DNA of 64,000 bases from IMG/VR virus record IMGVR_UViG_3300042545_000821, positions 36,770 to 100,769 of that record; one strand, 5' to 3'. The notes under the pieces were generated by a model that worked only from the letters and a program-made list of their open reading frames with translations, searched no databases and had not been told where the DNA came from. Shown here piece by piece: positions 14,419-57,214 of the stretch; positions within the stretch are counted from its first letter, which is position 1, and each line of letters begins with the position of its first letter. A program made the position numbers and the translations under genes. This stretch comes from a virus. Its lineage: Duplodnaviria > Caudoviricetes.

Positions 14419-14934
14419 TCAGCCGTTAGGGCTAAATTTAGTAGATTCATCGCCAAAAACAAAGGTTGTTATTGAGTACCTTTCTCTTTCTAAAACTGGA
14501 AATACTTGATGCTTAAGGTGGGCTTTGTGAATAACCATGCTTCCTTGCCTTGGGGTAACGCTTAGACCAAGAGTTGGGTATATCAACTCTCCCCCAGTAA
14601 AGTCGTCATTTAAATAAATAGCAATACCAAAAACTATTTTTCTTGGGTCATCGGGGTTTCCGCCATCTTCATGCGGCCACATAAACTCTGAATTTCTTAA
14701 CCTTCGTAAATCTCTAGAATAGGTTATTGACTCTATATTAATAAAAAGTGTTTCAATAGTTTCATACACATTGTTCATTTTAAGCAATGACTCATCACTT
14801 ATAGATTTAACTGTATTTCCTACGTGCGTAGTATCCCAATCAATATCTAGTTGAGCCTCAGATACAAGGGTACTTCTCAGCTCTTCATCTAAAAACCCCT
14901 CAATTTCGTACACACCTTCTCCGTGCTTTATCAT
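14419..14934 (-). CDS. 2OG-Fe(II) oxygenase, prolyl-4-hydroxylase-like
   Basis: HED...YLNDDFTGGEL...HQV...RYS. Confidence 0.88.
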   Translation of the reverse strand: MIKHGEGVYEIEGFLDEELRSTLVSEAQLDIDWDTTHVGNTVKSISDESLLKMNNVYETIETLFINIESITYSRDLRRLRNSEFMWPHEDGGNPDDPRKIVFGIAIYLNDDFTGGELIYPTLGLSVTPRQGSMVIHKAHLKHQVFPVLERERYSITTFVFGDESTKFSPNG

Positions 14935-14936
14935 GA

Positions 14937-15605
14937 TTAGTTATACTTGCTACTGTTGATGTGGCAAATTTCAATTTCATTTATATTAACATGGTTTGGT
15001 AACGACCCTACCCAGTAGATAGCTTCTGCTAAATCCTCTGCAGTTAAGGCGTAGTCTCGTTTTTGCTCTTGGGTATCAATGGTCGCTGGACAAATTTCTG
15101 TAATTTTAATGCCAAATTGAGGAAACTCAAGCCTCATTGTGTCGATTAGGCCGCGCTCACCCCGCTTGGCGTTTGTGTAATTTCCACCGCCACGATAGGG
15201 CACCTTGCCTCCAAAAGAAGTAATAAAGACAATTGTTGGAGAATCTGACTTTTCCATGCAGGGTACAAATAGTTGGGAAAGGTACATAGGCCCAGATACG
15301 TTTATATCGTAGGCGCGTCTAAAGTTATCCATGGTTTCATTAATAATACTAGTTGGGTCAGAGCCACCACCAGCATTGTTAACTAAAAGGTCTAGGGTTA
15401 TGTCTTTGTACTGCTCATAGAAGATCTCTATTGCTTTAGAGTCTGTTACGTCTAAGCTATATACCTCAACGTTATCAGATACAAGCTCAGATACTTTGGA
15501 AAGATTTCTTGAAACAGCAATAACCTTATAGCCATTTTCAGATAGGCGTTTAACTGTTGCTAACCCCACACCTTTGCTTGCTCCAGTTACAATAGCTGTT
15601 TTCAT
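14937..15605 (-). CDS. short-chain dehydrogenase/reductase
   Basis: TGASKGVG, NNAGG, catalytic YTNAK. Confidence 0.93.
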   Translation of the reverse strand: MKTAIVTGASKGVGLATVKRLSENGYKVIAVSRNLSKVSELVSDNVEVYSLDVTDSKAIEIFYEQYKDITLDLLVNNAGGGSDPTSIINETMDNFRRAYDINVSGPMYLSQLFVPCMEKSDSPTIVFITSFGGKVPYRGGGNYTNAKRGERGLIDTMRLEFPQFGIKITEICPATIDTQEQKRDYALTAEDLAEAIYWVGSLPNHVNINEIEICHINSSKYN

Positions 15606-15606
15606 A

Positions 15607-16233
15607 TTAATGAATCCAGTGTTGGGGCACCATTATCTTTTCGCCACTCTTCACTAGGTGTGCAGTGTGGTGGTATGGTGGAGATGGTGGGAAAACAATA
15701 ATGCTTCCAGCTTTTGGTTTGATAGCAAAAGTATAGCTTTTGTCTTGTGTTGCAATTTCAAAGTCAGGGTTTGGGCTAGCTAGAGTTAGTATTCCTTCTG
15801 GGGAAGCAATAGTAAAAGATAGCTCTCCACCCTCATAGTCGTCATTTAAGTACATAACAAAAGATACTTTAAGACGGCCATCCCCCTCTTGTTGGTCAAA
15901 GTGGGCACCCATATATGTGCCTGCCTTATACTTTTTAATCGGATACATTGGAAATAGTTTAGGCTCATCTGTGATGCCGTGAGCTGCTGCATAATCTTTT
16001 GCTACATCATAAAAAGCTTTTTGTAATGTAGAGTAGATATAAGTCTTCTGGATATCTGACGGGTCTGCAAAAATACTTTTATCTGTTCCATAGACATACG
16101 CTTCCCCACTACACGCCATCCATTCGCCCCAAGGATTTTCGTTGTCCTGGTCAATTGCATCAACAAGCTTCTTTGGGTCTTCAATTACGTTTGTGTAGTA
16201 GTAAACTTTTTCTTCAAGTATTTCTCTGTCCAT
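15607..16233 (-). CDS. 2OG-Fe(II) oxygenase, prolyl-4-hydroxylase-like
   Basis: HFD...YLNDDYEGGEL...HTAH...K; start moved to MDREIL with AAGGA RBS. Confidence 0.88.
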   Translation of the reverse strand: MDREILEEKVYYYTNVIEDPKKLVDAIDQDNENPWGEWMACSGEAYVYGTDKSIFADPSDIQKTYIYSTLQKAFYDVAKDYAAAHGITDEPKLFPMYPIKKYKAGTYMGAHFDQQEGDGRLKVSFVMYLNDDYEGGELSFTIASPEGILTLASPNPDFEIATQDKSYTFAIKPKAGSIIVFPPSPPYHHTAHLVKSGEKIMVPQHWIH

Positions 16234-16243
16234 TTTGCGTCCT

Positions 16244-16903
16244 TTAGTACTTATTCTTTTGATAGTGGTCTTTTTCTTTAATGAATCCCACAAGAACATA
16301 TCTTATGGGCCCATCCCCTACATGCTTGACTCCGTGCTCATACTCTTCGTTACCTGGAAAAAATAACATAGTTCCTGGTTTAGGCTTTAACTGGATATCA
16401 AGGTTTGGAAAAAATAATTCGCCGTCTGCATAGTTATCATTAATATATACAATTGTAGCGTATTTTATAGATGGGTCTGTTTTTTGATCCGTATGCGCTT
16501 TTAACTCTACCCCTGGTTGCATCCGCTGAATTGTTGCAAAACCACTTAAAATTAATTCCGGGTCGGCTTTGACTACCATTGAGTTTACAACATCATATAG
16601 GGGCCTTTGAATCTCATGATGCAAAATATTAAAGTTTTTATCTTTCCAATTTTGAGTAATTTCAAACTTACCCTCAGCAACTAAGTTTTCTACATCATCT
16701 CTGCCAAATTTTTCCATGCAAAACCATTTTAAGTTTGCGTGGTACTCTACTTCCCAGTCTTCTTGGGGGGTGCTATGTATAATATCCCAAAAAGTATCTA
16801 TTTGATCTTGTGATAAAAAGTTGTCCACAGAAAATAGTTCTGAGGTAATGTCTGTAACTACGTACCCGCTATCTATTAGCTGTTGTTTAAAAGACTCAAT
16901 CAT
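16244..16903 (-). CDS. 2OG-Fe(II) oxygenase, prolyl-4-hydroxylase-like
   Basis: HTD...YINDNYADGELFF...HGV...RY; start moved to MIESF. Confidence 0.88.
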   Translation of the reverse strand: MIESFKQQLIDSGYVVTDITSELFSVDNFLSQDQIDTFWDIIHSTPQEDWEVEYHANLKWFCMEKFGRDDVENLVAEGKFEITQNWKDKNFNILHHEIQRPLYDVVNSMVVKADPELILSGFATIQRMQPGVELKAHTDQKTDPSIKYATIVYINDNYADGELFFPNLDIQLKPKPGTMLFFPGNEEYEHGVKHVGDGPIRYVLVGFIKEKDHYQKNKY

Positions 16904-17651
16904 TTGCAACATCCTCTATTTTGTATTTATTCCCGGCTGCGTCTAGCTTCCAGCCTTGCTTAAGGAGCTCTTGCCACTCTGCTCGTTCAATCTCTTGTTG
17001 CGCTCTAGTGGCCTTCATCTCTTCAGCCCATGCATCTCGCACCTCTTGTGGGTACGCTGACTCTTCTCGGTCATCCCAGAAAGAACCAATGGTGTATCTG
17101 ACACCACCTGTAATAAGAGATACTTCGTGCATATTGTTAAACCCGCCGTCAAATACAGCGAGCAGCCCAACTTCTGGTTTAATCTCTAGGTTTTGTGCTG
17201 GGAACCGTAAAAGTCCACCTTCAAAATCATCGTTTAAGTATAGAAACCCTGCGTAGCGGCTTCTTGTAAACGCACCTGAGTTTCCTTCAGCATCTGTGTT
17301 GTCAGAGTGAATTCTTGCGTATGCTCCTGGCTCCCACTTCTGTGTGTGGTAACCAATTTTACAGATTGTTTTTGGGTCAAGGTCGTGGACTGAAGCAATT
17401 GCTTCAGGCATTGCCTTTTCAATATCTGAAAATATAGTTGGGGATAAACCAGCGTCAATAACTTCTTGGTCGTTGTCTTGTGGCAAAACTGAAGAATATG
17501 ACTCATAAAATGAAATAGGCATCCAAGAAATTGCCCCATTGTCTGCCTGAGCATCTAAGGCCTGGATCATCTTTTTGCAGTCTTCTTTGCCTATAAAATT
17601 TTTATAAACAACTATATCTTTTGTTATTCTTGTTTTGTTTTCCAAGTTCAT
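16896..17651 (-). CDS. 2OG-Fe(II) oxygenase, prolyl-4-hydroxylase-like
   Basis: HSD...YLNDDFEGG...HEV...RYT. Confidence 0.88.
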   Translation of the reverse strand: MNLENKTRITKDIVVYKNFIGKEDCKKMIQALDAQADNGAISWMPISFYESYSSVLPQDNDQEVIDAGLSPTIFSDIEKAMPEAIASVHDLDPKTICKIGYHTQKWEPGAYARIHSDNTDAEGNSGAFTRSRYAGFLYLNDDFEGGLLRFPAQNLEIKPEVGLLAVFDGGFNNMHEVSLITGGVRYTIGSFWDDREESAYPQEVRDAWAEEMKATRAQQEIERAEWQELLKQGWKLDAAGNKYKIEDVAND

Positions 17652-17667
17652 TGTGCTTTTACTCCGT

Positions 17668-18441
17668 CTAGTTATTTATAAGGGATTTGTCTCCAGCAAG
17701 AAGTTTTTCTATCTCCTGTTGAACAAGGGCATACTCTTCATCAAACACTTCTGGGGTTCTTCCTTCTCCCATAGCGGCAGGGGTCCCTTTAGCTATTAAA
17801 TCTTCTTTTAGTGTCTTTTCAATATCATAATTTAACACTGTGCACTGAAACCAGTTGGCTACATACCCATCTTTATCAATAAGGTACTTTTCAAAGTTTC
17901 CGCCCTGCATTGCGCCGTTACCAAAAGGCTGATTTAACCAAGGTGACAAATAACCATCTCTGTCTGGAATGCCGAGTTCTCTTTGTTTTTCAGCAAACAC
18001 AAGCATTTGCTCGGCTATTTCTTTGTATAGCTCATGAGTTTCTTTTCGTGGTTGACCTAGGCCGTTTACAGAGCTATCGCCCTTGTGAGGGCTAAGCTCA
18101 GTAGCACTCTCATTTGGGTTTGACGACACCATCTCTGAGAACTTAAACGTGGTTCCGTAGACTTCTTGACCATACTCTTGTGAATCTAAGCCACAGGTAA
18201 TGCCTTCAGACCACTTGCCCTTAGTTACTCCTGGGCCACAATAGTCATTAGTAGGGATAGCAATAACTTGAAAATCATCTCCGCCGTACTTATCTTGAAG
18301 CCATTGAAGAACTTCCATTTGATTAGCGTTACCACAGCCTACGGTTGTATTAGCCAGTAGGGTGACTTTACCCTTAAATTGACTTAAGAAGTCAGGGGAT
18401 CCCTCAGCAGAGTTAAGCGGGATGTCGTAAATTGATTTCAT
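17668..18441 (-). CDS. glutathione peroxidase-like thiol peroxidase
   Basis: KGKV.L.ANT..GCG..NQ, F.VIAIPTND, NFEKYLIDKDG match GPx motifs. Confidence 0.85.
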   Translation of the reverse strand: MKSIYDIPLNSAEGSPDFLSQFKGKVTLLANTTVGCGNANQMEVLQWLQDKYGGDDFQVIAIPTNDYCGPGVTKGKWSEGITCGLDSQEYGQEVYGTTFKFSEMVSSNPNESATELSPHKGDSSVNGLGQPRKETHELYKEIAEQMLVFAEKQRELGIPDRDGYLSPWLNQPFGNGAMQGGNFEKYLIDKDGYVANWFQCTVLNYDIEKTLKEDLIAKGTPAAMGEGRTPEVFDEEYALVQQEIEKLLAGDKSLINN

Positions 18442-18462
18442 ATGTTTTATTGTACACCGTCA

Positions 18463-19149
18463 TTACGGCTTTCTATCCCCTGTATGCGCCGTAATTTCCC
18501 AAAAGAAGGGGCACGTAAATCTTAGGCCACTCTTGATCTCAGTAACCCCGTGAATGTAGTTTTTGTCGCCGGGGAAGAAGTAGGCGGCGCCCTTTTTAGG
18601 CTTAAACTGCACGCCCTGTAGCGGGAAGTACAGCTCCCCGCCCTCATAGTCGTCGTTTAGATAAAACAAACTTGATAGGTCGTAGTTTGGGAAGTCGTTA
18701 GGTGTTCCGGCGTCAGGGCCCTCGTGAAGCTCTTTATCAGCGTGTGGTTTTTGAAACTGCCCAGGAAGCCATTTAACAATAGTTGTACCAGTTGGTATAA
18801 CCTCTACCTTGTAGAACTCTTCAATAATTGGTCGTAGTCTTTGAAATAGCCCAGCAATTACTGGAGATATTTTTGGGTCATTTTTATCTAAAGTTGGCTG
18901 AGTTGCAACCCTATCTTTCCAATAATCTGAGTCGTAGGTAACGGTCCCATTCTCATTTGTATGGCTTTGCGTTACATCCCAAATTGTTAAAGACTTAGCG
19001 GCTTTCTCTAAAAACTCTATCTCTTCTTGGGTCATAAAGTTCTCTAGCTCAACAATCATGTCTTTGCTGTCCCCAAACCATCCTGAGGGAGTCATAGATG
19101 GCGTTCTTTTTGCTACAGTGTACGAGTCTTTATCTTGTTCCATATTCAT
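18463..19149 (-). CDS. 2OG-Fe(II) oxygenase, prolyl-4-hydroxylase-like
   Basis: HAD...YLNDDYEGGELYF...HGV...RFT. Confidence 0.88.
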   Translation of the reverse strand: MNMEQDKDSYTVAKRTPSMTPSGWFGDSKDMIVELENFMTQEEIEFLEKAAKSLTIWDVTQSHTNENGTVTYDSDYWKDRVATQPTLDKNDPKISPVIAGLFQRLRPIIEEFYKVEVIPTGTTIVKWLPGQFQKPHADKELHEGPDAGTPNDFPNYDLSSLFYLNDDYEGGELYFPLQGVQFKPKKGAAYFFPGDKNYIHGVTEIKSGLRFTCPFFWEITAHTGDRKP

Positions 19150-19862
19150 AGTATATCTCTTTTCGTTTTATCTATTACTCCTAATTTTAATGTTTTTACT
19201 TCGTGAGAGCCTTGAGATTCTTTTTTCTCATTTACAGCATCTCTATACCAGTCTGTCCATTTTCCAGACGAGTTTATTTCTTGTGCGGCAGATCCATAGG
19301 ACATGTTTGCATTTAGTCTTTTTCTATCTGGATCTTGGTACTCAACAATCTCAATATTTGTCCCATTTAAATTTGACAAAGATATGGGAATAATTGTGGC
19401 AACCGGAGTTCCCGCTTTAATAATTACCCGCTTATTGGCAACCTTTGCCTTAATAGCTAAGGGCAAAGGGTTGTCATAAAAAGAGGTACTAATTAAAGAC
19501 GACATTGTCTCAAATTCGTCACTAAAGTAATTTACTGGGTTAATGGTAAAAATACTAACATCCTGATCTGTTCTAAAAACTAACCCGGTATTTAGGCTTA
19601 TAGAGGACTGACCCCTTCCAGAGTAGGCCCCTTCTGGACTAAATACTTGTACACGATCTGGGGTTTGGTCATTTACCCCATCCCAAATAAACTCAATATC
19701 TTGTAGACAAGACAGGCTCCAGCCAATCACATTTGATTGGGTTACTGGAAAACACCTATAGGCATGGTTCTCTGATGTTGCATCCATCCAATCTCTTTTA
19801 ATCGACATAGGTTGAATGTCAAACAAAGCTCCTTGTGTCTTCTCAACTGAGATATTAAACAT
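19146..19862 (-). CDS. DUF6065-like protein
   Basis: RDWMD....HAYRCFP....N..GW signature. Confidence 0.65.
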   Translation of the reverse strand: MFNISVEKTQGALFDIQPMSIKRDWMDATSENHAYRCFPVTQSNVIGWSLSCLQDIEFIWDGVNDQTPDRVQVFSPEGAYSGRGQSSISLNTGLVFRTDQDVSIFTINPVNYFSDEFETMSSLISTSFYDNPLPLAIKAKVANKRVIIKAGTPVATIIPISLSNLNGTNIEIVEYQDPDRKRLNANMSYGSAAQEINSSGKWTDWYRDAVNEKKESQGSHEVKTLKLGVIDKTKRDIL

Positions 19863-20518
19863 TAATCTGCGTCTGCGCTATACATTTCTGGAGTATGAAA
19901 CTTTTTGCTGTAATCTAACATTGTAACAATAGAGTATTTAGTTCCAGAAGTTACCGGTAGCGCTTGATGTGGGTACATAAAATTTGATGGAAAAATAAAC
20001 AGGTCCCCAGCATCAGGCTTAACCTTTAAGTTTTGTAGTCTAAAGAAAAGCTCTCCACCCTCATAATCATCGTTTGGATACCCAACTAAAGAGACCGTAC
20101 AGTTATAGGAAAAGCCATGGTCGTGATGTTCCATAAAGTGCTGTCCTGGACCATACTTAATGAAGTTAAATGCTTCCCAGTACTTTAGGTTGTTAATGTT
20201 ATACATCCTTGAGTAGTCTTCAACTGCTGGCAGCTTTACGTCATAAAGATCTTGCCAAAGTGATTGAAGGTTTTGACTAACCTGGCTTTTATCATTTTCA
20301 AGATCAGTTTTCTTAAATTTAAAGTCGTTGCAATCTCTGTACTCTGGCATAAGCTGCTTATACCCAACATATGCAGGTTGCCAAGCGTACCCAGTAGTAT
20401 CCCCTTCTGGCTTAAGGTTTGCTTCAATTCGGCCCATAACATCAATGTCTTTATTGATTACGCCCTTATAGCAAAAAATGCCGCTGCCTAAATCAACTTT
20501 TTCTGTCCATGTCTGCAT
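19862..20518 (-). CDS. 2OG-Fe(II) oxygenase, prolyl-4-hydroxylase-like
   Basis: HHD...NDDYEGGELFF...FPSNFMYPH...GTKYS. Confidence 0.88.
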   Translation of the reverse strand: MQTWTEKVDLGSGIFCYKGVINKDIDVMGRIEANLKPEGDTTGYAWQPAYVGYKQLMPEYRDCNDFKFKKTDLENDKSQVSQNLQSLWQDLYDVKLPAVEDYSRMYNINNLKYWEAFNFIKYGPGQHFMEHHDHGFSYNCTVSLVGYPNDDYEGGELFFRLQNLKVKPDAGDLFIFPSNFMYPHQALPVTSGTKYSIVTMLDYSKKFHTPEMYSADAD

Positions 20519-20527
20519 TACATTCTC

Positions 20528-21295
20528 CTATTTGTATTCTCGTCTTGACCAAACACTATTTTGGTATACCCCGCCATCAGGCTGGCGATAAAACTGCATG
20601 TTATTAACTAGTTTATCATACATAGTAGATTGATCTGGGATCTCTATTTTATGTTCCCAGTTTTCTCTTTTAAACGGAAGAACCTGCATATACGGGGTTC
20701 CTTCCGGTAAGGTGCCTTCCCAGCCTTCTGGAAGAAAAAATGGAAAAGTTCCAAGTAAGTGAAGTTTATCTGAGTCCACAACGCCAGTAGTATTTAAAAA
20801 TGGTAAGTCAAACCTATTCATTGGTGTCATAAACAGTGCACTATACCCTTCTGGAAGCTCTAATCCCCAAGGAGAACTCCAGGCAAAGTGGGTTTGATAA
20901 TATCCTTTTGGGTGTTCAAACTGTGGCATTGGGGGCCTTTGTGTACAAAAATCTTGGTACTTAGGGTTATCAATTTTTACATCTATGACTCCCTGATCAT
21001 TTTTATAAAAAACTAGGTCGCATGGTGTTTTAAAAATGTACCCGGTTGTAAAGGCATCCATAATAGCGGGGCACGCTTTCCATGTCGGAATCTTTCCATA
21101 ATCATCAGTTGTGCCCTCTTTAGGAAACGGACAAACTTCTTTTGGCGCTTTGTAGTATTCCCCGTTTGGCATCTTTGCAAATCTGTCTGCATCTTTATAC
21201 CAGGCAGGAATTTGTGTTTGTGTTGGTACGGGAACAGAGATATGCTTTTTATCTATCCACGGCCTAAATGATCTAAATATGGCTACTAAAGACAT
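20528..21295 (-). CDS. DUF6065-related (dUTPase-fold-like) protein
   Basis: P.WYK...TWKACP...D....GY...PEGYS.LF..P.N...TGVVDSD...GTP.MQVLPFKRE.W. Confidence 0.55.
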   Translation of the reverse strand: MSLVAIFRSFRPWIDKKHISVPVPTQTQIPAWYKDADRFAKMPNGEYYKAPKEVCPFPKEGTTDDYGKIPTWKACPAIMDAFTTGYIFKTPCDLVFYKNDQGVIDVKIDNPKYQDFCTQRPPMPQFEHPKGYYQTHFAWSSPWGLELPEGYSALFMTPMNRFDLPFLNTTGVVDSDKLHLLGTFPFFLPEGWEGTLPEGTPYMQVLPFKRENWEHKIEIPDQSTMYDKLVNNMQFYRQPDGGVYQNSVWSRREYK

Positions 21296-22002
21296 TACTT
21301 GTGCCCCAATTCATTGATATCTGTCATAACAACCACGCAATATTTTGTCCCTGAAACCATTGGCAGGGATGCATGCTCATAGATATAGTTTGATGGGAAC
21401 ACCGCGATGTCCCCTACTTTTGGTTTATAAACTAGATTATCAAGTCTTGGGAACTTAAGGTCTCCACCCTCATAATCATCGTTAATATAAATAACCGCAG
21501 ATACTGTGCAGTTGTATGCAGGGCCGTGGTCTGCGTGAATGTTGAAGTGAGTCCCTGCCCCCTCATACTTTACAAAGTTAAAAGCTTCGTAATATACGAC
21601 GTTAATGCCCCAATACCTAGCATAGTCGTCTATACAGTACTTAAGCTTTTGGTATATCTCCTCATGCAAGTCTATAAGTTCAGCGTTTGACTCATCTTTT
21701 GGCCCAAGGTTTTCCTGCTTATACTTAAAATCTACACAGTCTCTTGCCCGCTTAACTGGGACATCAGACTGCGTAACTTGCGCCTCTGACCACTTGTATT
21801 TGTTGCCTGGTGATAGGTTGGATTCAAGAGTGTTAATGTATCTTGCAGCATCTTCACTGGAAAAAGTGTTTTGGTAAACGTGTAGTCCCAAACCTAAATT
21901 TTTAACACTTACTTTATCGTCTAGAGCTCTTTCAGGAACTCTATTTGATGCAGTCTCTGACCTATCTTTTGTAAACCAGATGTTTTCATTTTCATTGTGC
22001 AT
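21295..22002 (-). CDS. 2OG-Fe(II) oxygenase, prolyl-4-hydroxylase-like
   Basis: HAD...YINDDYEGG...FPSNYIYEH...GTKY; close paralogue of 19862-20518. Confidence 0.88.
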   Translation of the reverse strand: MHNENENIWFTKDRSETASNRVPERALDDKVSVKNLGLGLHVYQNTFSSEDAARYINTLESNLSPGNKYKWSEAQVTQSDVPVKRARDCVDFKYKQENLGPKDESNAELIDLHEEIYQKLKYCIDDYARYWGINVVYYEAFNFVKYEGAGTHFNIHADHGPAYNCTVSAVIYINDDYEGGDLKFPRLDNLVYKPKVGDIAVFPSNYIYEHASLPMVSGTKYCVVVMTDINELGHK

Positions 22003-22020
22003 TTTTTGCCCTCCTATAAT

Positions 22021-22266
22021 CTAATTAAGTGGCTGTCTTTTCCATTTTCCAATAGGACACTCTGCATCCGCAAGCGTTGTTTTTAACGGCATAATGCATC
22101 CGCATAGCTTACAGCTTTTTGTAACCTTAATAAGGTTTTCACAAGACATGCATTCATCAAGTCTTTTTTTAATAATTTCCTGGTCATCAATTCTTTTGCC
22201 AGAATCAATTAAGTGCCAAGGCCTTGAGTCTCCAAGAGCCTCTTTCCATTCACTCCATTTAGACAT
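22021..22266 (-). CDS. small Cys-rich metal-binding protein (DUF6171-like), paralogue of 11153-11395
   Basis: RPW.L...RLDECMSC...CKLCGCIMPLKT.L...ECPIGKW. Confidence 0.75.
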   Translation of the reverse strand: MSKWSEWKEALGDSRPWHLIDSGKRIDDQEIIKKRLDECMSCENLIKVTKSCKLCGCIMPLKTTLADAECPIGKWKRQPLN

Positions 22267-22269
22267 AGG

Positions 22270-22701
22270 TTACTCTGGAGACGTAAAGGTTGTGCCGTCC
22301 CAGATAGAGCCACGATTAACTGTTTGGCCTTCTGGTACCTTAATGACAATAACTTCTTGAGCAAAAGCAGCGGCGTTCATTAAATCTGTGTGACCACCTT
22401 TTGGAGATACCGTAGTTAAGAACACGGTGTTGTCCACTAGGAAAGAGTATCTTCCCCAATCAGGGGTATCGTTGAACCTTTCAGGTATTTCTCCTCCCGT
22501 AAAAGATTCACCGTCCCAAACTGATCCAGGATAGACATTTGGGATATCTGTTGTAACCAGTGTTGTTATTGGCAGGCCGCTATTTAGCGCATTATCAATT
22601 CGCTGAATTAAAATGTCTGCTTGAGGGCTCTCAAGGTGTAGCATATTAAAAACTTCGTAAGAGTTTTCAGATACTTTTGTTGCATACGCATACGTACTCA
22701 T
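22270..22701 (-). CDS. fibre-assembly helper-like protein
   Basis: Two GS(V/I)WDG.(S/T)FT repeats. Confidence 0.6.
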   Translation of the reverse strand: MSTYAYATKVSENSYEVFNMLHLESPQADILIQRIDNALNSGLPITTLVTTDIPNVYPGSVWDGESFTGGEIPERFNDTPDWGRYSFLVDNTVFLTTVSPKGGHTDLMNAAAFAQEVIVIKVPEGQTVNRGSIWDGTTFTSPE

Positions 22702-22742
22702 TAAGTTCTCCTTTTGTAATTACTTAATAAATATACCATATC

Positions 22743-23681
22743 TTAGTAAGCGCACTGACAACCGCACCCTGCGCCAAAGTCATACGCACAGAAGTAGCAA
22801 GCTGATCCACAGCCACCAAAGGATGGGAAGCTAGGTGGGAAGAAAGGAGGGAAGAACGGAGGGAAGAACGGGAAGAACGGTGGAAAGAATGGTGGAAAGA
22901 ACGGGAAGAATGGGAAGAATGGCGGGAAAAATGGTGGGAAGAAGGGAAAGAATGGCGGGAAAAATGGTGGGAAGAAAGGAAAGAATGGAAAGAATGGTGG
23001 GAAGAAAGGAGGAAAGAATGGGAAAAATGGTGGAAAGAATGGTGGGAAGAAAGGAAAAAACGGTGGGAAGAATGGCGGGAAGAATGGGGATAACGTAGTA
23101 ATAGAGCCAGACGCAGCAGAAGCAACACTTGTTCCATTAGCGTTAGTTGCGGTGACTGTGTATGTCTGTGACGTTCCACCAGTATCAGCGATAGTAATTG
23201 GGGAAGTCGCACCTGTTCCAGTAGTGGCATCGGAGCCTGTTACGGTAAAGCCAGTAATTGCGCTACCACCAGTTGCTGGTGCTGTAAAAGCAATAGAGTT
23301 TTGATTAACTCCAGCAGTTGGGGTTGGGGCAGACATAGTTGCAGGAACTGTTGTTGCGGTAATAGAAGATGATGCTGCAGATGCCTGAGAGGTTCCCGCA
23401 GCGTTAGTAGCTGTTACAGTAAATGTGTAGGCTGTGTCAGACTGAAGTCCAGCTACCGTAATTGGGGAAGATGATCCAGTTCCAGTATATCCGCCAGGCG
23501 ATGAGGTTACAGTAAACGATGTAGCAGCAGGGGACAGCGCAGGCAAAGAAAATGTAACTGTAGCTGCGCCATTGTTAAACGCTCTTCCTGTTCCAACATT
23601 TGTAGCAGATACGCTTGTTGGAGCTAATGGCTCTAAAAAGTCATTTGAAGCCTGTGACTTTTTTCCAACTCTTTTACCCAT
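22743..23681 (-). CDS. fibronectin-III-like protein with (P)PFF repeat and Cys-rich C-terminus
   Basis: Two FN3-like units (GL...TAYTFTVTATNAAGTS), 90-aa Pro/Phe repeat, then GGCGSACYFCAYDFGAGCGCQCAY. Confidence 0.8.
   Translation of the reverse strand: MGKRVGKKSQASNDFLEPLAPTSVSATNVGTGRAFNNGAATVTFSLPALSPAATSFTVTSSPGGYTGTGSSSPITVAGLQSDTAYTFTVTATNAAGTSQASAASSSITATTVPATMSAPTPTAGVNQNSIAFTAPATGGSAITGFTVTGSDATTGTGATSPITIADTGGTSQTYTVTATNANGTSVASAASGSITTLSPFFPPFFPPFFPFFPPFFPPFFPFFPPFFPPFFPFFPFFPPFFPPFFPFFPPFFPPFFPFFPFFPPFFPPFFPFFPPFFPPFFPPSFPSFGGCGSACYFCAYDFGAGCGCQCAY
22818..23087 (-). repeat. coding low-complexity repeat encoding (PFF/PPFF)n, about 23 FF units
   Basis: Visible GGGAAGAA/GGAAAGAA-type iterations with synonymous variation. 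Confidence 0.95.
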
Positions 23682-23702
23682 TTAATTCTCCTGTATATTT
23701 TC

Positions 23703-25352
23703 TTAAGCTGTCAAGTCGCCGAAGACAACCCAGGTATTTTCTGCTCTTTTGAAAAGGGTGCATGAAGACCATTGGGTTCTCAGTTTTAATCCTGGTGTTG
23801 CGTTTACTGTTACTCCAGCAGCTCCAGCGATTGTTACCTGCCCTGTAGAAGTTTGAAGAATATCAATTGATGTTCCTACTGGGAAGGCTACTGCCGAGTT
23901 TAAAGGTATTGTGAGCGTCATGGCGGATGATGAAGCCATTTCAATTAAATCATCTCTTTCAGTCAATGCTGAAAGTGTGTAAGAGGCTGTCTTTTGAATA
24001 ATAGGGGTACGTGATGGGACGCCTTCAAGGGCCTGTGTTCCATCTGAAAAGACAATTCCTGCAGCAGGAAGAGTTACAGTGCCAGTAAATGTGGGAGAAG
24101 CAAGCGGGGCTTTTAATCCAAGATTAGTTGTTACTGTTGATGCAAAGTTTGCATCGTCACCAAGTGCTGCTGCAAGCTCGTCAAGTGTGTTTAAAGCTGC
24201 TGGTGCTCCTGAAAGCAATGCATTTACTTGTGATGTTGCGTCTGCAATTGCTTCTGATTTAGCAGTTGCAATTGCTGAAGCCTGCGCTGTTGATACCGGC
24301 TTTGCTGAATCTGCTGTGTCGTCAACGTTTCCAAGACCAACCATAGACTTGGTAATGCCAGAAACGGTTCCTGTAAATGTAGGGCCTGAAAGGTTGGCTT
24401 TTAAATCAAGAGCGGTCTGTTGCGCTGTTGATACCGGCTTACTTGCGTCTGCTGTGTTATCTACGTTACCTAGCCCTACGTGAGATTTAGTTACGCCTGA
24501 GACTGTTCCTGTGAAAGTTGGGTTAGCCAAGGGTGCATATGTAGAAGCCGCTGTTGCAGAGGCAAGTTTTAAATCAAGTGCTGTTTGTGTTGCTGTGGAA
24601 ATTGGCTTGTTAGCATCTGTTGTATTATCTACACTGCCTAGGCCTACATCTGATTTAACTAGTCCAGATGGAGTGGTAATTGTTTTATTTGTAAGGGTCT
24701 GAGTTCCAGTAGTTGTTACAAGAAGGCTAGTGTCTGTAATTCCATGAACATTTAATGTATCTGCTTCGTGAGTACCCAGTGACGTAGAGACTGCGTTAGA
24801 GGCTGCTGTATCAGCGTATGCTTTAGTTGCAAGTTCTGCTGTATCTGCAATCCCATGTACGGCCGTTGTGTCTGAGCTATGTGTGCTTACAGCCGTGTCT
24901 GCGTATGACTTTGTTGCAAGATCGGCGGTATCGGCTATTCCATGAACAGAGGTTGTATCTGAGCTATGTGTTCCTATCGCATTTGTTGCATATTCTTGAG
25001 TAGCAATTGTTCCTGTTGAATCTGGAAGAGTTAATGTTCTGTCTGCTGTAGGGTCTGCTACTGCAAAGGTAGTCTCAAAAGCATTTGCAGTTGTGCCCTC
25101 AAATACAAGGCTGGCACCAGTGTCAAGAGATACTGTGCCAGTAAAAGTCGGGGAAGCAATTGGTGCGTAAAGGCTGGCTGCAGCTGCTGGAGTTAGGGTG
25201 ATATAAGGTAGCGAAGCCCAAACTGTAAGTCCGTCTCCAACTTTAAGTTTCTTAGTGTCAGTCTCTACACCAACTTCACCTTCAAGAAGAATTGGGTTTG
25301 AGGCGGTCCACTCAGCCGCAGTTCCCCTGCGTAGTAGAATATTAACTGCCAT
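23703..25352 (-). CDS. tail fibre protein with Mtd-N/hyaluronidase-like N-terminus
   Basis: LRRGTAAEW...NPIL.EGE.G.ETDT.KLK.GDG; internal repeats DTT.VHGI.DT x3 and VGLG.VD.T.D..KP.STA x3. Confidence 0.85.
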   Translation of the reverse strand: MAVNILLRRGTAAEWTASNPILLEGEVGVETDTKKLKVGDGLTVWASLPYITLTPAAAASLYAPIASPTFTGTVSLDTGASLVFEGTTANAFETTFAVADPTADRTLTLPDSTGTIATQEYATNAIGTHSSDTTSVHGIADTADLATKSYADTAVSTHSSDTTAVHGIADTAELATKAYADTAASNAVSTSLGTHEADTLNVHGITDTSLLVTTTGTQTLTNKTITTPSGLVKSDVGLGSVDNTTDANKPISTATQTALDLKLASATAASTYAPLANPTFTGTVSGVTKSHVGLGNVDNTADASKPVSTAQQTALDLKANLSGPTFTGTVSGITKSMVGLGNVDDTADSAKPVSTAQASAIATAKSEAIADATSQVNALLSGAPAALNTLDELAAALGDDANFASTVTTNLGLKAPLASPTFTGTVTLPAAGIVFSDGTQALEGVPSRTPIIQKTASYTLSALTERDDLIEMASSSAMTLTIPLNSAVAFPVGTSIDILQTSTGQVTIAGAAGVTVNATPGLKLRTQWSSCTLFKRAENTWVVFGDLTA

Positions 25353-25636
25353 TACGAAACTCCTCCGTCATAAGACCCTGTGTAAGACCCTGCAAATGTG
25401 GATGATGAGACTCCGCCGTCTACATTTGGAGTTCCACCGTAGAAAGAGGCTGGTCTTCCACCATCTACGTTAAGTTGACCAGAGCCACCAGTACCGACAA
25501 TGTCAATCCAAAGTGTGCCATCGTATATTCTTAATTTTAATGTTGTAGTATCAAAGTATAAGTCACCCGCCCGTTGGCCAACAGGCTCGCTGCTTTTAGC
25601 CAGTACGTTTAGAGGTACTAGTGCTTTTGTACTCAT
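25352..25636 (-). CDS. small tail fibre-associated protein
   Basis: GDLYFDT....LRIYDG..W fibre motif; DGG repeats. Confidence 0.6.
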   Translation of the reverse strand: MSTKALVPLNVLAKSSEPVGQRAGDLYFDTTTLKLRIYDGTLWIDIVGTGGSGQLNVDGGRPASFYGGTPNVDGGVSSSTFAGSYTGSYDGGVS

Positions 25637-25641
25637 TTATA

Positions 25642-27006
25642 TTATCCGATTACCACTACTCTGTAGGCATTAGATGTCGGTGCGGACGCAAAACCAAGTG
25701 TTACAGTGGATGTTGACGCACGTATGTTATCTACAATAACTTCTTCTCCCGTGGCCACTTCATAAACTTGAACGTGAACGTCTAGTGTTCCTAGGTTGTG
25801 AGTTACTGTATACGAGGTAGCTGATGTAGAGAGTGTTGTTGAATACTTTCTAGCTACTACTGTTGCATCAACAGAGATGGTATTGGTTCCAACAACGATA
25901 CCGTTGCCGGCACCAATTGCAAAACCGTTAGCGTCTGTAGCGGCACCAGAGTTAGTAGCAAGCTTGATAGATCCGCCACCCGCAGCTGTCTGCAAACCAC
26001 CTGTGGAAAGTGGGGCAAATGTGAAGTTAGTTCCTGTAAGAAGAACGCCGTTAGAGGCTGTGTATGTTCCAGCACCTGAGAACTGTGCAAAAGTAAGGGC
26101 AGTAGTTCCTAGTGTAATAGGGTTGTCAGTTGTTAATACCCAGCCGCTATTTCCGTTTATAGTTCCTTGTTCTACAAATGTAAACATTCCCGAAGTAACG
26201 TCTGCATTAGAGTTTGCGTCCAAAGCACGGTCTGGAGCTCCAGAGGCCTTAACTACGTAAATACCGTTTTCAGAACCATCTGCCTGATGCTTAACAAGAA
26301 TGCGGTCACCAGTAGCAAGAGTTACTCCATCAAGAGTATCTCCATTCTCAAGGTCTGTAGCTAAAGTTACTGCGGCAGTAGTTGCTGCACGAACAGAGGC
26401 TTTGACATCAAGGCCTTGTGCAACAGAGTCTACATAGTTTTTAGTTGCAGCATCCTGTGCGCTTACTGGGTCTGCTACGTTTGTGATTAGCTGGCTGTTC
26501 ATTGAGAACGAGCTGGTTGGTGCTGTTAAATCTGTTACCTTATTTGTAGTAAGGATTACTGTTCCGCTAGCATCGGGGAGAGTGATTGCGCGGTCAGCGG
26601 TTGGGTCAGTTGCAGTAAGTGTGGTTTCGTTACCGTCTGCTGTAGAGCCTTCAAATACGATTGTGGAGTCTAGCGAAACCGTACCTGTAAAGGTCGGGTT
26701 AGCAAGAGGGGCCTTTAGGTCAAGTTGACCTTGAATACCTGAGGTAACTCCGTCAACGTAGTTAAGCTCTGTGGTAGTAAGCGTTGCTCCGTCAAGAATG
26801 TTGATTTCTGCAGCATCTGCAGTTACGCCATTGAGTCCAACAGCTTCCCAGATCGTGCCATTATAAACACGCATTTCATTAGAAGCAGTGTTGTAGTAAA
26901 TCTGACCTGTTACAGGGCTCGCCGGGTCAGTGGCTAAGTTTTGAATACGGGCATTTTGTAATTCTAATTTGCCTAAATCAATTGGGGTTAAAAATTTACG
27001 TGCCAT
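25642..27006 (-). CDS. tail fibre / collar protein
   Basis: DAATKNYVD..AQGLD.K.SVRAATT, GDRILVK.Q...ENGIY, THNLGT motifs. Confidence 0.8.
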   Translation of the reverse strand: MARKFLTPIDLGKLELQNARIQNLATDPASPVTGQIYYNTASNEMRVYNGTIWEAVGLNGVTADAAEINILDGATLTTTELNYVDGVTSGIQGQLDLKAPLANPTFTGTVSLDSTIVFEGSTADGNETTLTATDPTADRAITLPDASGTVILTTNKVTDLTAPTSSFSMNSQLITNVADPVSAQDAATKNYVDSVAQGLDVKASVRAATTAAVTLATDLENGDTLDGVTLATGDRILVKHQADGSENGIYVVKASGAPDRALDANSNADVTSGMFTFVEQGTINGNSGWVLTTDNPITLGTTALTFAQFSGAGTYTASNGVLLTGTNFTFAPLSTGGLQTAAGGGSIKLATNSGAATDANGFAIGAGNGIVVGTNTISVDATVVARKYSTTLSTSATSYTVTHNLGTLDVHVQVYEVATGEEVIVDNIRASTSTVTLGFASAPTSNAYRVVVIG

Positions 27007-27017
27007 TTACTATCTCC

Positions 27018-27305
27018 TTATGATAGGTAAGCTTTTCCGCTAAAGCCAGACCTAAACGTTAGCAGTACTGTAGTAGGGGTTGGATAAGAAATCTCTCCTT
27101 CAACAACACTACCCCCAGAGTCTACTACGGTAACATTTGGGTGAAAGGTTAAATTGTGAGAGATGGTCCAAGTATCGGAGGGGGTATTTTGGGCATAAAC
27201 GAATCCCAGTTGCGGTACGCCCATACTAAGGTCTGAAAGTACTATGTCTGGTGAATTTATAATGCCAATTATGTCTGGAGGGTGATCATGCCAAAGTGGG
27301 GTCAA
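27018..27305 (-). CDS. small structural protein
   Basis: W.I.HNL...P.VTVVDS.G..VEGEI.Y...F...FSGKAYLS. Confidence 0.65.
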   Translation of the reverse strand: MTPLWHDHPPDIIGIINSPDIVLSDLSMGVPQLGFVYAQNTPSDTWTISHNLTFHPNVTVVDSGGSVVEGEISYPTPTTVLLTFRSGFSGKAYLS

Positions 27306-28375
27306 GTTGTCACCTGTTTTTCTGTAAAGACCTTTCCTTTGGCATACGTTTTAATGTTTCCAGAAGAATCAGTCATTTGAATGTCGTAATAGGATGTTTT
27401 TGGTAGGTTAGCAGTAGTAGCTGCGGGAAGTGTGATAATCAACCCATCTACGACACTGTTGTTGTTTACAGAGTATTTTGTAATAACAAAGTCTGCAAGT
27501 AATATGGGGCCAATCTGTGCGAAGCCTCCTTGGGTATACAGACGAATCTGTCCCTTAGGGGTAAAGCCAGTAAGATCAAAGCCAAACTGGTATCGCATAG
27601 AAAAGTCATCTCCAGAGTACATTGAGATGTCTCGTGAAAGAATTGTTGATGGGGGGGTAATATCCCCATAGTCTGGCATAGGTAGGTAAACTCTTTGTGG
27701 CAAAGAGTGGTCATCAATCTCTTGTGGGCGATAAATAGGTACGTAATGGTTAGTACGTCGGCTGATCTTGCGAAGCGTAAAGACTTCAATTCGGTGCATA
27801 CCTAAGCCAAGCAAAACACACAGTTCTCTGTATTGCTCTTTACGAGTAGTTACTATCTCCATTAGCTGCCTAAAGCGCTCAGATCGTGGAATGGATACGC
27901 CATCTGGGGAGATAATGTCAATGTCAAAAGCTGAGTCAGTAGCTAGAGTGTATAAAGCCATGCTGGCAGCTAATAGTACCAGAGGGTACTCATCAATAAC
28001 AGGAAGTGTGAGTAATGTAGCCCGACTACCATTTGAATCTGTAGTGCTTCGAGCATGCTCCACAAAGGCAGTATTTATGTAATATTGAATTTCTGTGTCG
28101 GTAAAGTATTTAAATGTAGTTCCTGAAACAGTTATTACTGCCCCATTTGATGGAGCAACAGCTAGCTGTATCATCCCGGTAACTTCTTCTATTATTGCGG
28201 TAGAGGCTACGCTAGTGCTGCCAACATTAATTGTTAAATTTGTCCCCTTTATTGGGGCGTAGGTAAGTTGAAAACGTTTATTAGAACCGTCTCCTGTAAA
28301 GGTCTCTACGAAAGAACGACCCATGTCTCCGATTTCGGCACGAAGTCTATCTGAAAGAGCTGAAAGCGTTGCCAC
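27302..28375 (-). CDS. head-tail connector / neck protein
   Basis: Follows capsid genes; DI.SPDGVSIPRSER motif; C-terminal Ig-like YYDIQ.TD. Confidence 0.55.
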   Translation of the reverse strand: MATLSALSDRLRAEIGDMGRSFVETFTGDGSNKRFQLTYAPIKGTNLTINVGSTSVASTAIIEEVTGMIQLAVAPSNGAVITVSGTTFKYFTDTEIQYYINTAFVEHARSTTDSNGSRATLLTLPVIDEYPLVLLAASMALYTLATDSAFDIDIISPDGVSIPRSERFRQLMEIVTTRKEQYRELCVLLGLGMHRIEVFTLRKISRRTNHYVPIYRPQEIDDHSLPQRVYLPMPDYGDITPPSTILSRDISMYSGDDFSMRYQFGFDLTGFTPKGQIRLYTQGGFAQIGPILLADFVITKYSVNNNSVVDGLIITLPAATTANLPKTSYYDIQMTDSSGNIKTYAKGKVFTEKQVTT

Positions 28376-33528: not shown

Positions 33529-35184
33529 TTACTTAAAGAAAGGAGATGCACTTACCTCTACGGTAGGCATAACCATCTCTTGAGTTAAAGAACAAGCTAG
33601 GGCCAATGCGTCCACAAAGTCATCGTGAGCATGCGCCTCTTCAGGAGCCGCCACTAAGAAGTTAGGACCCTTATATTGTACTTCCGCATCGGTCATTTGT
33701 TGGTAGAAACGCTTCCACATACGTAATCTTCTAGTTTTGGCGTGAGCTGGCCAAGATATCATCTGGCGTTGAATTAGGGCTTGAAGGTGCTTCCAACGCT
33801 TTGACTGCTCGGTAGGGCTAGAAAGGGAAGAAATTACTTGCGCCCTGGGTAGCAAAATCTTTAGTCTTTGAGCTACGGCATCTCCTACTCCGTTAGAGTC
33901 CACCGCAACAGCCATGACGTCATAATTACCTAAAAAGTTTACTATTTGAAAATACTGCTCTTCCCAGTCATCTCCCTGGATTTCCATCCAGTTTAAGATG
34001 CGATGATCGTAGTAGCCAAACTCATCTGGACGATCCCAGTCAACCCAAACAACTGTAACGACTGTAGAGTCCATTTTTCTAGCCGGGTCGATACCAACTA
34101 CTACAGGAGATCTATGCCAGCTTTTTACAACTTCTTGAGAAGTATCGCCAAGATCATCCATAACAGAGGAAGTAACGAACATTCCACGTTCTAATAGCCA
34201 TTTGCAGTTATAAGATAGTTGAAACTCATCAGAGTCTTCGCCAATACGTAGCATCTCTTTTCTAATGAACTTCTCATAATTAGGGTTAAATTTAGCTACA
34301 TCTTTCCAGTCCCATTGAAAATGGTTTTGTCTGGAGGATCTACCGGTCTGCCTACGCTTGTTTAATTGAATAGACCTATAAAAGTTATTTTTATGCGTGG
34401 TGGGTGTCCCTGTCTTAACCATAGTTGCGTTGTAGTACGCACCCATAGGAGCAATAGACTTAGAAACAATAAAGTCATCTGCTTCTTGACACTCATCAAT
34501 AACCATCAAATGAAAAGACTTAGACTCAATCTTTGCACGTGGGTTAGCGGTCATCATCATAAGAGATGACCCCGAGTTCTTTAATTTGATATTTCTTGTT
34601 ACTCCTGGAGTTTTGACGGTCATGTCATCAATTTCAGCGTCCCCTAGGACTTCTAGCGCACGCTCACTTGTTAGACGAGACACGGTTCTAGAAAACAAAG
34701 TTTCTGCTTGAGCTTGAATAGGAGCAAACATTCCCACCCATATACCGTCTGCAAACTTACTTAATAGTTCTGGATACATTTTTGCTAAACGGGGCAGCAA
34801 AACCATCAGGGTAGCAACAGTATCAGCTACAGTTTCTGACTTACCTGACTGACGTGAGGCTAAAGCGGTTACTTCTTCGCCATCGTTAACAATTACAGAT
34901 TCAATAATGCGTCTAGCTAAAGGTTTTTGATATGGGTGTAGATCATGTCCTACTAATATGACCATAAAATCCATAATTTTATTTACAAGTAGGTCGACAA
35001 ACTCTTTAGATAATTCATCAAGCTCGTCTTCTTTATGAAGTTTTTCAAATTCTTCTACATCGTCATAATCATAATCTTCATTAGGCGCGTGGTCTATTAC
35101 ATCTAAATCGTCAAGTTCACTTTCGTCGTCTTCAAATTCTTCTTCGTCTTCCTCAAGGTCTTCAAAATCAAAATCTTCTTTCAT
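33529..35184 (-). CDS. terL: terminase large subunit
   Basis: Walker A SRQSGKS, Walker B VIDECQ, TGTP coupling motif, nuclease GIDPA and HDDFVDAL. Confidence 0.95.
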   Translation of the reverse strand: MKEDFDFEDLEEDEEEFEDDESELDDLDVIDHAPNEDYDYDDVEEFEKLHKEDELDELSKEFVDLLVNKIMDFMVILVGHDLHPYQKPLARRIIESVIVNDGEEVTALASRQSGKSETVADTVATLMVLLPRLAKMYPELLSKFADGIWVGMFAPIQAQAETLFSRTVSRLTSERALEVLGDAEIDDMTVKTPGVTRNIKLKNSGSSLMMMTANPRAKIESKSFHLMVIDECQEADDFIVSKSIAPMGAYYNATMVKTGTPTTHKNNFYRSIQLNKRRQTGRSSRQNHFQWDWKDVAKFNPNYEKFIRKEMLRIGEDSDEFQLSYNCKWLLERGMFVTSSVMDDLGDTSQEVVKSWHRSPVVVGIDPARKMDSTVVTVVWVDWDRPDEFGYYDHRILNWMEIQGDDWEEQYFQIVNFLGNYDVMAVAVDSNGVGDAVAQRLKILLPRAQVISSLSSPTEQSKRWKHLQALIQRQMISWPAHAKTRRLRMWKRFYQQMTDAEVQYKGPNFLVAAPEEAHAHDDFVDALALACSLTQEMVMPTVEVSASPFFK

Positions 35185-39290: not shown

Positions 39291-39457
39291 TCGTCATCCT
39301 TTGGGTTACGTAATGGGTAAGTCACCGCCCACGCAAATAGTGTTCCTACAATCGCATAGCCTACAATGGTTTTAGCTGACCCGTCTAGAACAACCCAGGC
39401 AATAAACATGCCTAGTAGTGTCCATAGCTGGTCGATCATATCTCTTAGTATTCTCAC
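39287..39457 (-). CDS. small two-TM membrane protein (56 aa, not in ORF track)
   Basis: [50 protein letters not shown]...; GTGA and ATGA coupling on both sides. Confidence 0.7.
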
Positions 39458-55688: not shown

Positions 55689-55795
55689 CCTTCCCAGCGT
55701 GAGTGGCACACATTGAGGTTCGAGTCCTCTACACGCACGGCGGGCGACTACATCGGGTAGTTGCCTTAGCTATAAAGAAAGTGGAAGGACAGATT

Positions 55796-57205: not shown

Positions 57206-57214
57206 GGAGTAATC

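Follow-up and report, generated by a model that had tools for sequence, protein, structure and literature searches.

The stretch of viral DNA analysed here (64,000 nt; hereafter the window) covers the 3′-terminal 64 kb of IMGVR_UViG_3300042545_000821, a viral record of 100,769 bp rated 100% complete, and the minus strand of the window encodes a 312-aa protein in which two fibronectin type III (FN3) domains are followed by 83 residues of proline and phenylalanine only and, after two degenerate units, by a short cysteine-rich tip. Our best explanation, whose chances of being right we judge to be about even, is that this protein forms a fibre on the virion, in which a non-globular Pro/Phe segment of tunable length acts as shaft or adhesive and the tip can be exchanged. 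It builds on the sequence anatomy of the protein, protein-level selection on the repeat, conservation across the family, gene order, and a link between the type of tip and the gene downstream, all of which we observed directly. Going beyond a first-pass annotation of the same DNA that had singled out the repeat, we found three alternative C-terminal modules, a downstream gene linked to one type of tip and a downstream block of oxygenase genes.

Anatomy of the Pro/Phe-repeat protein

The open reading frame (ORF) at 22743..23681 has an AGGAG 7 nt 5′ of its ATG and lies 21 nt past the stop of the fibre gene upstream, with 41 nt between its own stop and the next gene. Its parts are the following.

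22743..23681, minus strand: whole coding sequence of the Pro/Phe-repeat, fibre-like protein, 312 aa plus stop; the same gene is present in 79/79 related loci
23619..23681, minus strand: conserved N-terminal peptide MGKRVGKKSQASNDFLEPLAPT, residues 1-21, candidate docking segment (alignment and AF2 helix)
23088..23618, minus strand: two tandem FN3 domains, residues about 22-198 (Pfam, AF2 and Foldseek)
22839..23087, minus strand: 83-residue Pro/Phe-only block, residues 199-281, 14 PPFF and 9 PFF units
22818..22838, minus strand: degenerate last units PPSFPSF, with an identical ending in relatives L004, L012 and L014
22746..22817, minus strand: C-terminal tip of 24 aa and 6 Cys, GGCGSACYFCAYDFGAGCGCQCAY, a putative mini-module knotted by disulfides; orthologous tip in L014

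The FN3 assignment combines a profile match above the curated cut-off (Pfam fn3, PF00041; 34.9 bits against a cut-off of 25, E = 1.8e-8) with a beta-sandwich fold that AF2 predicts at a pLDDT of 96-99 across residues 20-200 and for which Foldseek returned tandem FN3 pairs (E = 6e-10), so that the earlier claim of a repeat linking FN3-like domains to a six-Cys tip holds. Ahead of these domains, K3, S9, F15, L16 and P18 of the N-terminal peptide are near-invariant in the family alignment and AF2 predicts a short helix at residues 7-15; the peptide may serve in docking. The sequence of the N-terminus has neither a signal peptide nor a membrane helix.

The block that follows is made up exclusively of 37 Pro and 46 Phe residues, arranged as 23 units in the order 1-22-1-22-1-22-1-1-22-1-22-1-1-22-1-22 (1 = PFF, 2 = PPFF), with super-periods of 11 and 25 residues; Tandem Repeats Finder (TRF) reports a 75-nt (25-aa) higher-order period with 3.3 copies and 82% matches. 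The coordinates and counts given in the first-pass annotation proved exact: 22818..23087 corresponds to residues 199-288 (90 aa), with 23 units and the ending PPSFPSF. The repeat can be neither helical nor of normal beta structure because 45% of it is Pro, and AF2 assigned it a pLDDT of 57-64 with no DSSP structure, which shows neither the polyproline II (PPII) helix nor the aromatic zipper put forward in the first-pass annotation; by analogy with other Pro-rich repeats and with known aromatic-proline contacts, an extended PPII-like or aromatic-Pro-stacked conformation is the natural guess. The homotrimer model of residues 186-312 received no support (score 0.00, run without controls) and carries no weight either way. 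Collagen-like features were absent, the repeat containing no Gly and the genome no G-X-Y run of at least 6 units. PHROGs holds no family for the protein, and a Protein Atlas search with residues 190-312 gave no usable match. The 14 Pro-Pro pairs should make translation dependent on EF-P in the host.

The repeat is a protein-level feature

Codon usage in the block is mixed (TTC 34/TTT 12; CCA 21/CCG 8/CCT 7/CCC 1), with 28/83 codons being minor third-position codons, while 0/166 first and second positions depart from CC or TT. Under a crude model with an equal rate at every site this pattern has a probability of about 2e-30. Since the variation is confined to third codon positions, the repeat is a real coding sequence selected at the protein level, as the first-pass annotation had concluded from its mixed synonymous codons.

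That annotation had also raised an assembly artefact as the outcome that would undo it. The stretch occurs in 24 lake-water runs, and contigs were compared for four of them (X1, X11, X12 and X13). In X13, a run without the flag of possible source and apparently an independent assembly, a 2600-nt contig covers 22300-23649 with 3 substitutions and 0 gaps; in X1, a possible source, the whole repeat is crossed without a single difference; in X11 and X12 it is covered by tiled contigs whose unitig breaks fall within it. The length differences of variant contigs (3, 3, 84 and 126 nt) are each divisible by three, and some of these contigs, at 90% likeness, may come from related phages. The idea that the repeat is an assembly or annotation artefact of low-complexity GGGAAGAA-type DNA draws on the unitig breaks in X11 and X12, on the 7/79 related loci whose contigs end within the repeat and on the other reading frames across it, which are open as well. 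We give it next to no credence, given that contigs from two runs bridge the repeat at equal length, that its codon positions vary as they do in coding DNA, and that every relative keeps the P/F frame ahead of diverse in-frame C-terminal domains. The 7/79 contigs that stop there mark the repeat as a break-point for assembly, yet not as an artefact, as far as contigs can show.

A family with a constant core and an adjustable length

A word-indexed protein search returned 2660 matches at E ≤0.001 among 8000 scored candidates, and a Pro/aromatic repeat was found in 105 of the best 120 database matches by a composition-window criterion. None of the database relatives has a specific name, and where a name is given it is a generic one ('Fibronectin type III', 'PKD repeat protein', 'trimeric autotransporter adhesin'). 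In a scan of viral contigs 253 relatives were confirmed, of which 79 loci were kept; the repeat is present in 79/79, the ORF is complete in 72, and the frame is kept in all 72. Genes of this kind are probably under-counted because the repeat breaks short-read assemblies.

Counted over 193 sequences, not de-duplicated, the commonest units are PPFF (1097), PFF (1035), PPYF (355) and PYF (243), followed by PPSF, PSF, PPRF and others. The family unit can be written P(P)-x-F: the last position is F in 3091/3091 units, in a search that also permitted Y and W, whereas the penultimate position is F in 69% and Y in 19% and then S, G, R or H. An invariant last Phe beside a variable neighbour argues for a defined contact or conformation and not for mere composition.

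Across the family the N-terminus is conserved and the C-terminus variable, and the repeat spans about 20-182 aa (median 62). Its length was compared across homologues as the first-pass annotation had proposed, and the predicted tunability was borne out: among relatives that share 82-93% identity with the window protein over the N-terminal 204 residues, the repeat still measures anything from 47 to 167 aa, with the frame kept. These close relatives have their first and last units in common, and the differences in length fall in the middle.

An exhaustive HMMER search found neither the repeat nor the N-terminal motif in any of the 149 giant multi-FN3 proteins listed beyond the family. Megablast of 20000-26000 and tblastn against 50,697 phage records gave no match, a result of little weight with a low-complexity filter that hides the repeat. 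Among prokaryotes, searched as one genome for each of 185,579 species, 0 relatives were confirmed among 600 pattern matches, and a 44-nt degenerate Pro/Phe pattern occurred in 4 contigs only, all from metagenome-assembled genomes (MAGs); three of these translate to the Pro/Phe phage family and the fourth has no ORF of at least 60 aa. Contigs that carry the Pro/Phe gene (L082-L085) are binned in MAGs labelled Luteolibacter, Bacteroidetes and Acidimicrobiaceae; they are probably mis-binned phage DNA, and hence give no host assignment. Neither the Pro/Phe motif nor its topic turned up in the literature searched, a coverage outside which fall ~1.7 million PubMed Central articles and most subscription journals; a phiCbK study deals with inteins in the terminase and has no bearing on the family.

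Three kinds of C-terminus

Beyond the repeat the family ends in one of three ways: a Cys-rich tip, a Hint domain, or almost nothing. The Cys-rich tips are 5-48 aa long and comprise 47 distinct sequences in 32 sequence clusters. Their Cys count is even in 47/47 (2 Cys in 5 tips, 4 in 10, 6 in 10, 8 in 17, 10 in 4 and 12 in 1), and from these even counts, which include 6 and 10, fully paired intrachain disulfides would be expected; the tip of the window protein may likewise be disulfide-knotted. Searching Pfam with 8 Cys tips at E up to 10 gave nothing credible.

A Hint domain of 155-170 aa directly follows the repeat in about 50/105 repeat-bearing matches. A profile of 15 such tails matched the solved bacterial intein-like (BIL) structure 2lwy_A over its full length (E = 5.3e-9), and several inteins were matched as well; the first residue is Cys in 11 of the 15 and Ser in 4, and 6 have a His-Asn ending. 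In jumbo phages, relatives of the Hint part bear the annotation 'putative phage tail protein, contains intein domain' or that of 'virion structural protein'. The window protein itself has its 24-aa Cys tip instead, the Hint domain being found in relatives only. Of 90 distinct short tails, finally, 42 are Cys-free, at 2-37 aa.

These endings suggest a different division of labour, in which the Pro/Phe run would do the work itself, as an aromatic, sticky tentacle that attaches to a hydrophobic or glycan surface or ties fibres into bundles, with the Cys tip or Hint domain as a cap for solubility until assembly. The repeat is the sole C-terminal feature common to all members, and it may itself be adhesive, since in two of the three end classes it would form the mature C-terminus, the 42/90 Cys-free short tails as they stand and the roughly 50/105 Hint-ended matches once cleaved; the invariant Phe with its variable neighbour also suggests a specific contact face. 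We regard the tentacle as possible without favouring it, for the diversity of the Cys tips and their linked downstream gene fit a recognition module better than a cap, and Phe is a poorer carbohydrate-stacking residue than Trp or Tyr.

A downstream gene accompanies the cysteine-rich tip

Two genes lie between the Pro/Phe gene and the oxygenase block.

22270..22701, minus strand: u143, 143 aa, candidate tip-specific helper or chaperone, 41 nt past the Pro/Phe gene (AF2 and fold match)
22021..22266, minus strand: DUF6171, 81 aa, Cys-rich (CxxC...CxxCxC...C); Pfam E = 5.6e-5, below cut-off; phrog_13558, E = 4.6e-15

The distance from the stop of the repeat gene to the first oxygenase depends on how the protein ends. 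In short-tail loci, a set that leaves out the Hint loci L026, L032 and L043, it is 55-127 nt, with L047 and L079 as exceptions; in most Cys-tip loci it is 531-897 nt, the exceptions being L058 and L080, where it is longer, and L060 and L071, where it is 32 nt. Among the loci listed, which include all Cys-tip loci but four, the gap behind a Cys tip holds an ORF of 102-150 aa that starts 9-80 nt past the stop, with or without DUF6171, and an ORF of the size of u143 occurs solely behind Cys-tipped genes. The DUF6171 gene lies within 2.5 kb downstream in 18/36 Cys-tip loci as compared to 0/31 others; that its product folds or oxidises the Cys tip is a guess. In L053, L058 and L061/L062, loci with Hint or other tips, one to three extra ORFs of 230-260 aa precede the oxygenase block, and by eye these look sulfotransferase-like.

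u143 has no match in Pfam, PHROG or NCBIfam and 25 homologues, none of them named. AF2 models it with a pLDDT of 92.5 as a duplicated beta-beta-alpha-beta unit; each half closes with a G-x-(I/V)-W-D-G-x-x-F motif. Against the PDB there was no Foldseek match at E ≤0.001 and none by sequence profile. In an exhaustive structural alignment its top match was 7ypx_a (Z 5.6, root-mean-square deviation 3.5, 55 residues, 22% identity, chain residues 3-58), ahead of a runner-up at Z 3.5 and of a phage Mu fibre-plus-chaperone entry at Z 2.8. The 162-residue chain of 7YPX is the Pam3 chaperone gp25; its beta-sandwich, Met1-Ala55, is described as the part that binds the tip of the fibre and as similar to the N-domain of the chaperone of Mu (PMC9608196). 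A cyclophilin fold, matched by several chains at Z 3.0-3.5, is within noise and was not used.

Fibre genes upstream and a model for the protein

A fibre gene is located directly upstream of the Pro/Phe gene in 79/79 loci, and in the window it is the following.

23703..25352, minus strand: fibre 1 (Mtd_N domain at the N-terminus), known from actinophages as 'minor tail protein'; a match to it adjoins the repeat gene in 75/79 loci

In those 75/79 loci the match to the extreme C-terminus of fibre 1 ends 8-109 nt before the Pro/Phe gene, and the conserved part is often the last 120 aa or so (68-89% identity). Fibre 1 is thus best conserved at its C-terminus, the reverse of the usual variable fibre tip. 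Because the conserved C-terminus of fibre 1 and the conserved N-terminal peptide of the Pro/Phe protein adjoin, we infer that the two dock.

Part of what marks a fibre with a tip-specific chaperone is in place, namely a structural module, a conserved N-terminus and a variable C-terminus. In our model the N-terminal peptide would dock, possibly on fibre 1, and the FN3 beads and the Pro/Phe run would project outward so that the end module makes the specific contact. The Pro/Phe segment, stiffened by proline and aromatic, would be the constant core of the family on which selection acts at the protein level, and in-frame gain or loss of units of 3 and 4 residues would reset its length, and hence the reach of the fibre and probably its stickiness. 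The 6-Cys module would travel with its own helper gene or genes, much as tail-fibre tips do with their chaperones, and the Hint domain of other members would act as a self-cleaving, removable cap.

The same gene order bears on the suggestion that the protein never enters the virion and is a late intracellular or released product, for example one that forms condensates or acts on the envelope. The segment is extremely hydrophobic and aromatic, and the gene borders an auxiliary-gene island, the oxygenase block. We find this improbable nonetheless, as the N-terminus lacks a signal peptide or membrane helix, as FN3 strings in a layout of conserved N-terminus and variable C-terminus are typical of phage structural proteins, and as the gene is packed tightly and co-directionally with the fibre genes by its 21-nt and 41-nt spacers.

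Several points nevertheless weigh against a virion fibre with a tunable shaft and a swappable tip. We infer the presence of the protein in virions, and the same is true of its orientation, its PPII-like conformation, its disulfides and the chaperone role; no RNA run is listed among the 24 runs with the locus. With all 79 loci coming from a single phage lineage, their gene order may reflect descent and not function. The fibre genes come directly after the head genes and the best PHROG for fibre 2 is 'head decoration', which leaves head, neck or tail as the site of attachment. AF2 predicts no regular structure in the repeat, and its stiffness and PPII conformation are assumptions. The likeness of u143 to a chaperone is suggestive and weak, with a Z of 5.6 that lies below the tool's caution line of 8 and 55 residues aligned; homology to u143 is not established for every ORF behind a Cys tip, three of which aligned at 17-20% identity. 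Lastly, self-cleavage of the Hint tails is not assured because their block-B His is mostly Gln.

The oxygenase block and a possible modification of the repeat

Downstream of the tip cassette lies a block of genes with predicted enzymatic functions; the Pfam scan took in 19 ORFs neighbouring the Pro/Phe gene.

14419..22002, minus strand: oxygenase block, with six paralogous 2OG-FeII_Oxy_3 ORFs and a weak Tet_JBP-like ORF, among which DUF6065, phrog_7084, a GSHPx-like ORF and an SDR (short-chain dehydrogenase) are interspersed (Pfam, PHROG)

The six ORFs, located between 15607 and 22002, are above the Pfam cut-off for 2OG-FeII_Oxy_3 (PF13640). The block is kept downstream and in order in 69-71/79 loci, the contigs of the others ending at or just past the repeat gene. 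For two of the oxygenases the nearest solved relatives are a prolyl 4-hydroxylase from Bacillus anthracis (E = 2-3e-4) together with lysyl hydroxylases of collagen, LH3 among them (E = 9e-5 to 9e-4), which places them in the protein-hydroxylase branch of 2-oxoglutarate (2OG) oxygenases. As the genome holds no collagen-like run, the Pro/Phe protein is an obvious candidate substrate. A second candidate is a 622-aa ORF at 39454-41322 (minus strand), which has a signal-peptide-like N-terminus and no Pfam family and consists of about 330 aa of Pro-Thr, Pro-Ser and Pro-Glu repeats followed by an acidic, Ala-rich C-terminal part.

Homologous oxygenases with 26-38% identity occur in 113 cyanophage records, in which tblastn with the window protein, low-complexity filter on, found nothing. 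The co-occurrence of block and repeat gene is no proof of a functional link because the 79 loci are one lineage. Earlier work proposed DNA repair or 2-oxoglutarate balance as the role of such phage genes (PMC3037559). We treat as rather unlikely, while worth stating, the proposal that the six or seven conserved downstream oxygenases are dedicated to the Pro/Phe repeat, which would become a hydroxyproline-rich, extensin- or collagen-like aromatic fibre; if it were true, the long-unexplained clusters of 2OG oxygenases in aquatic phages would have a structural-protein target.

The oxygenases also bear on a suggestion of the first-pass annotation that found no support, a multi-core precursor of the ribosomally synthesised and post-translationally modified peptide (RiPP) type that would release modified Pro/Phe peptides or the Cys-rich tail. 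The composition recalls the Pro-Pro-Phe-Phe cyclic peptides of plants, such as the flax orbitides (PMC5963108), and both the Cys-rich C-terminus and the nearby tailoring-type oxygenases are compatible with a RiPP. Such a precursor is very improbable all the same. What we found is a 312-aa two-domain protein in which about 200 aa are folded as FN3, with no spacers and no repeated flanking or cleavage motifs between the units; among the 19 neighbouring ORFs scanned, Pfam found no maturase and no radical-SAM, YcaO, lanthipeptide or peptidase family; and many members of the family are tail-less or Hint-ended.

Source and surroundings of the locus

We read the source as a lake-water myophage of roughly 100 kb. 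On the minus strand the genes run from the large terminase, an SPP1-type portal and the major head protein through small ORFs to fibre 2, a 94-aa ORF, fibre 1 (Mtd_N), the Pro/Phe gene, u143, DUF6171 and the oxygenase block, beyond which lie the tail sheath and an M23/lysozyme protein. The large terminase (33529-35184, minus strand) has its closest cultured relatives in Streptomyces phages of ~113 kb (BRock, 52.7% aa identity); among cultured phages the oxygenases match cyanophages only, and the fibre matches 'minor tail proteins' of actinophages. At 55703-59179 (plus strand) an AAA_5 ATPase is followed by a VWA-domain protein, a pair that resembles the CobS/CobT-like pairs common in aquatic phages. 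A scan of 19500-27500 for promoters and terminators gave counts not above those of shuffled sequence.

Comparison with known systems

The locus is laid out like the S/U-Tfa system of phage Mu and gp24-gp25 of Pam3 (7YPX): in each there is a fibre module whose variable distal end is tied to a small downstream gene, and the best match for the predicted fold of u143 is the fibre-binding N-domain of Pam3 gp25. Where those systems have a trimeric beta-helix, a coiled coil or a Gly-rich domain as shaft, FN3 domains and the Pro/Phe run take its place here; the helical trimerisation domain found in gp25 and Tfa is missing from u143, whose sequence resembles neither of them; and the tip is a Cys-rich peptide of 10-48 aa.

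With about half of the family Hint-ended, a second likeness is to the self-cleaving C-terminal chaperone domains of the K1F endosialidase and T5 pb1 and to BIL/Hint domains, and fibres built with a C-terminal domain that is later removed are already known (PMC9608196). Unlike in K1F and T5 pb1, the fold in this family is Hint and not an endosialidase-type chaperone, and the window protein has no Hint domain.

The T4 Hoc-type Ig/FN3 proteins are similar bead strings, of which the window protein has two confident FN3 domains, and they lack the Pro/Phe repeat (0/149 of the giant multi-FN3 proteins listed). Ig/FN3 bead strings on virion proteins are thought to give weak surface adhesion. Collagen, plant extensins and the Pro-rich repeats of chloroviruses, which are substrates of prolyl 4-hydroxylase (P4H), are alike in being Pro-rich, tandem and non-globular, and P4H- or lysyl-hydroxylase-type genes adjoin the repeat gene here. 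Unlike collagen and the extensins, the Pro/Phe repeat has neither Gly-X-Y nor Ser-Pro4, and Phe flanks every Pro. Self-assembling Phe-Phe and Pro-Phe-Phe peptides and PPFF peptides of the cyclolinopeptide type share residues and local order with the repeat; they occur as free peptides, from tripeptides up to nonapeptides, whereas here an 83-residue stretch is embedded in a 312-aa phage protein.

Our data fit a known arrangement, that of phage fibres whose tip can be exchanged and comes with a helper gene, to which the shaft chemistry, the alternatives of Cys-knot and Hint and the hydroxylase neighbourhood are new. The family offers three interchangeable ways to finish a fibre: with a Cys-rich knot and its helper gene, with a Hint domain, or with no added module. 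Its core, a two-residue polypeptide with an invariant last Phe and a freely tunable length, amounts to a natural experiment in non-globular protein design and possibly to a new type of fibre shaft or adhesive, and it gives the protein-hydroxylase-like genes, which many aquatic phages carry, a concrete candidate for a substrate.

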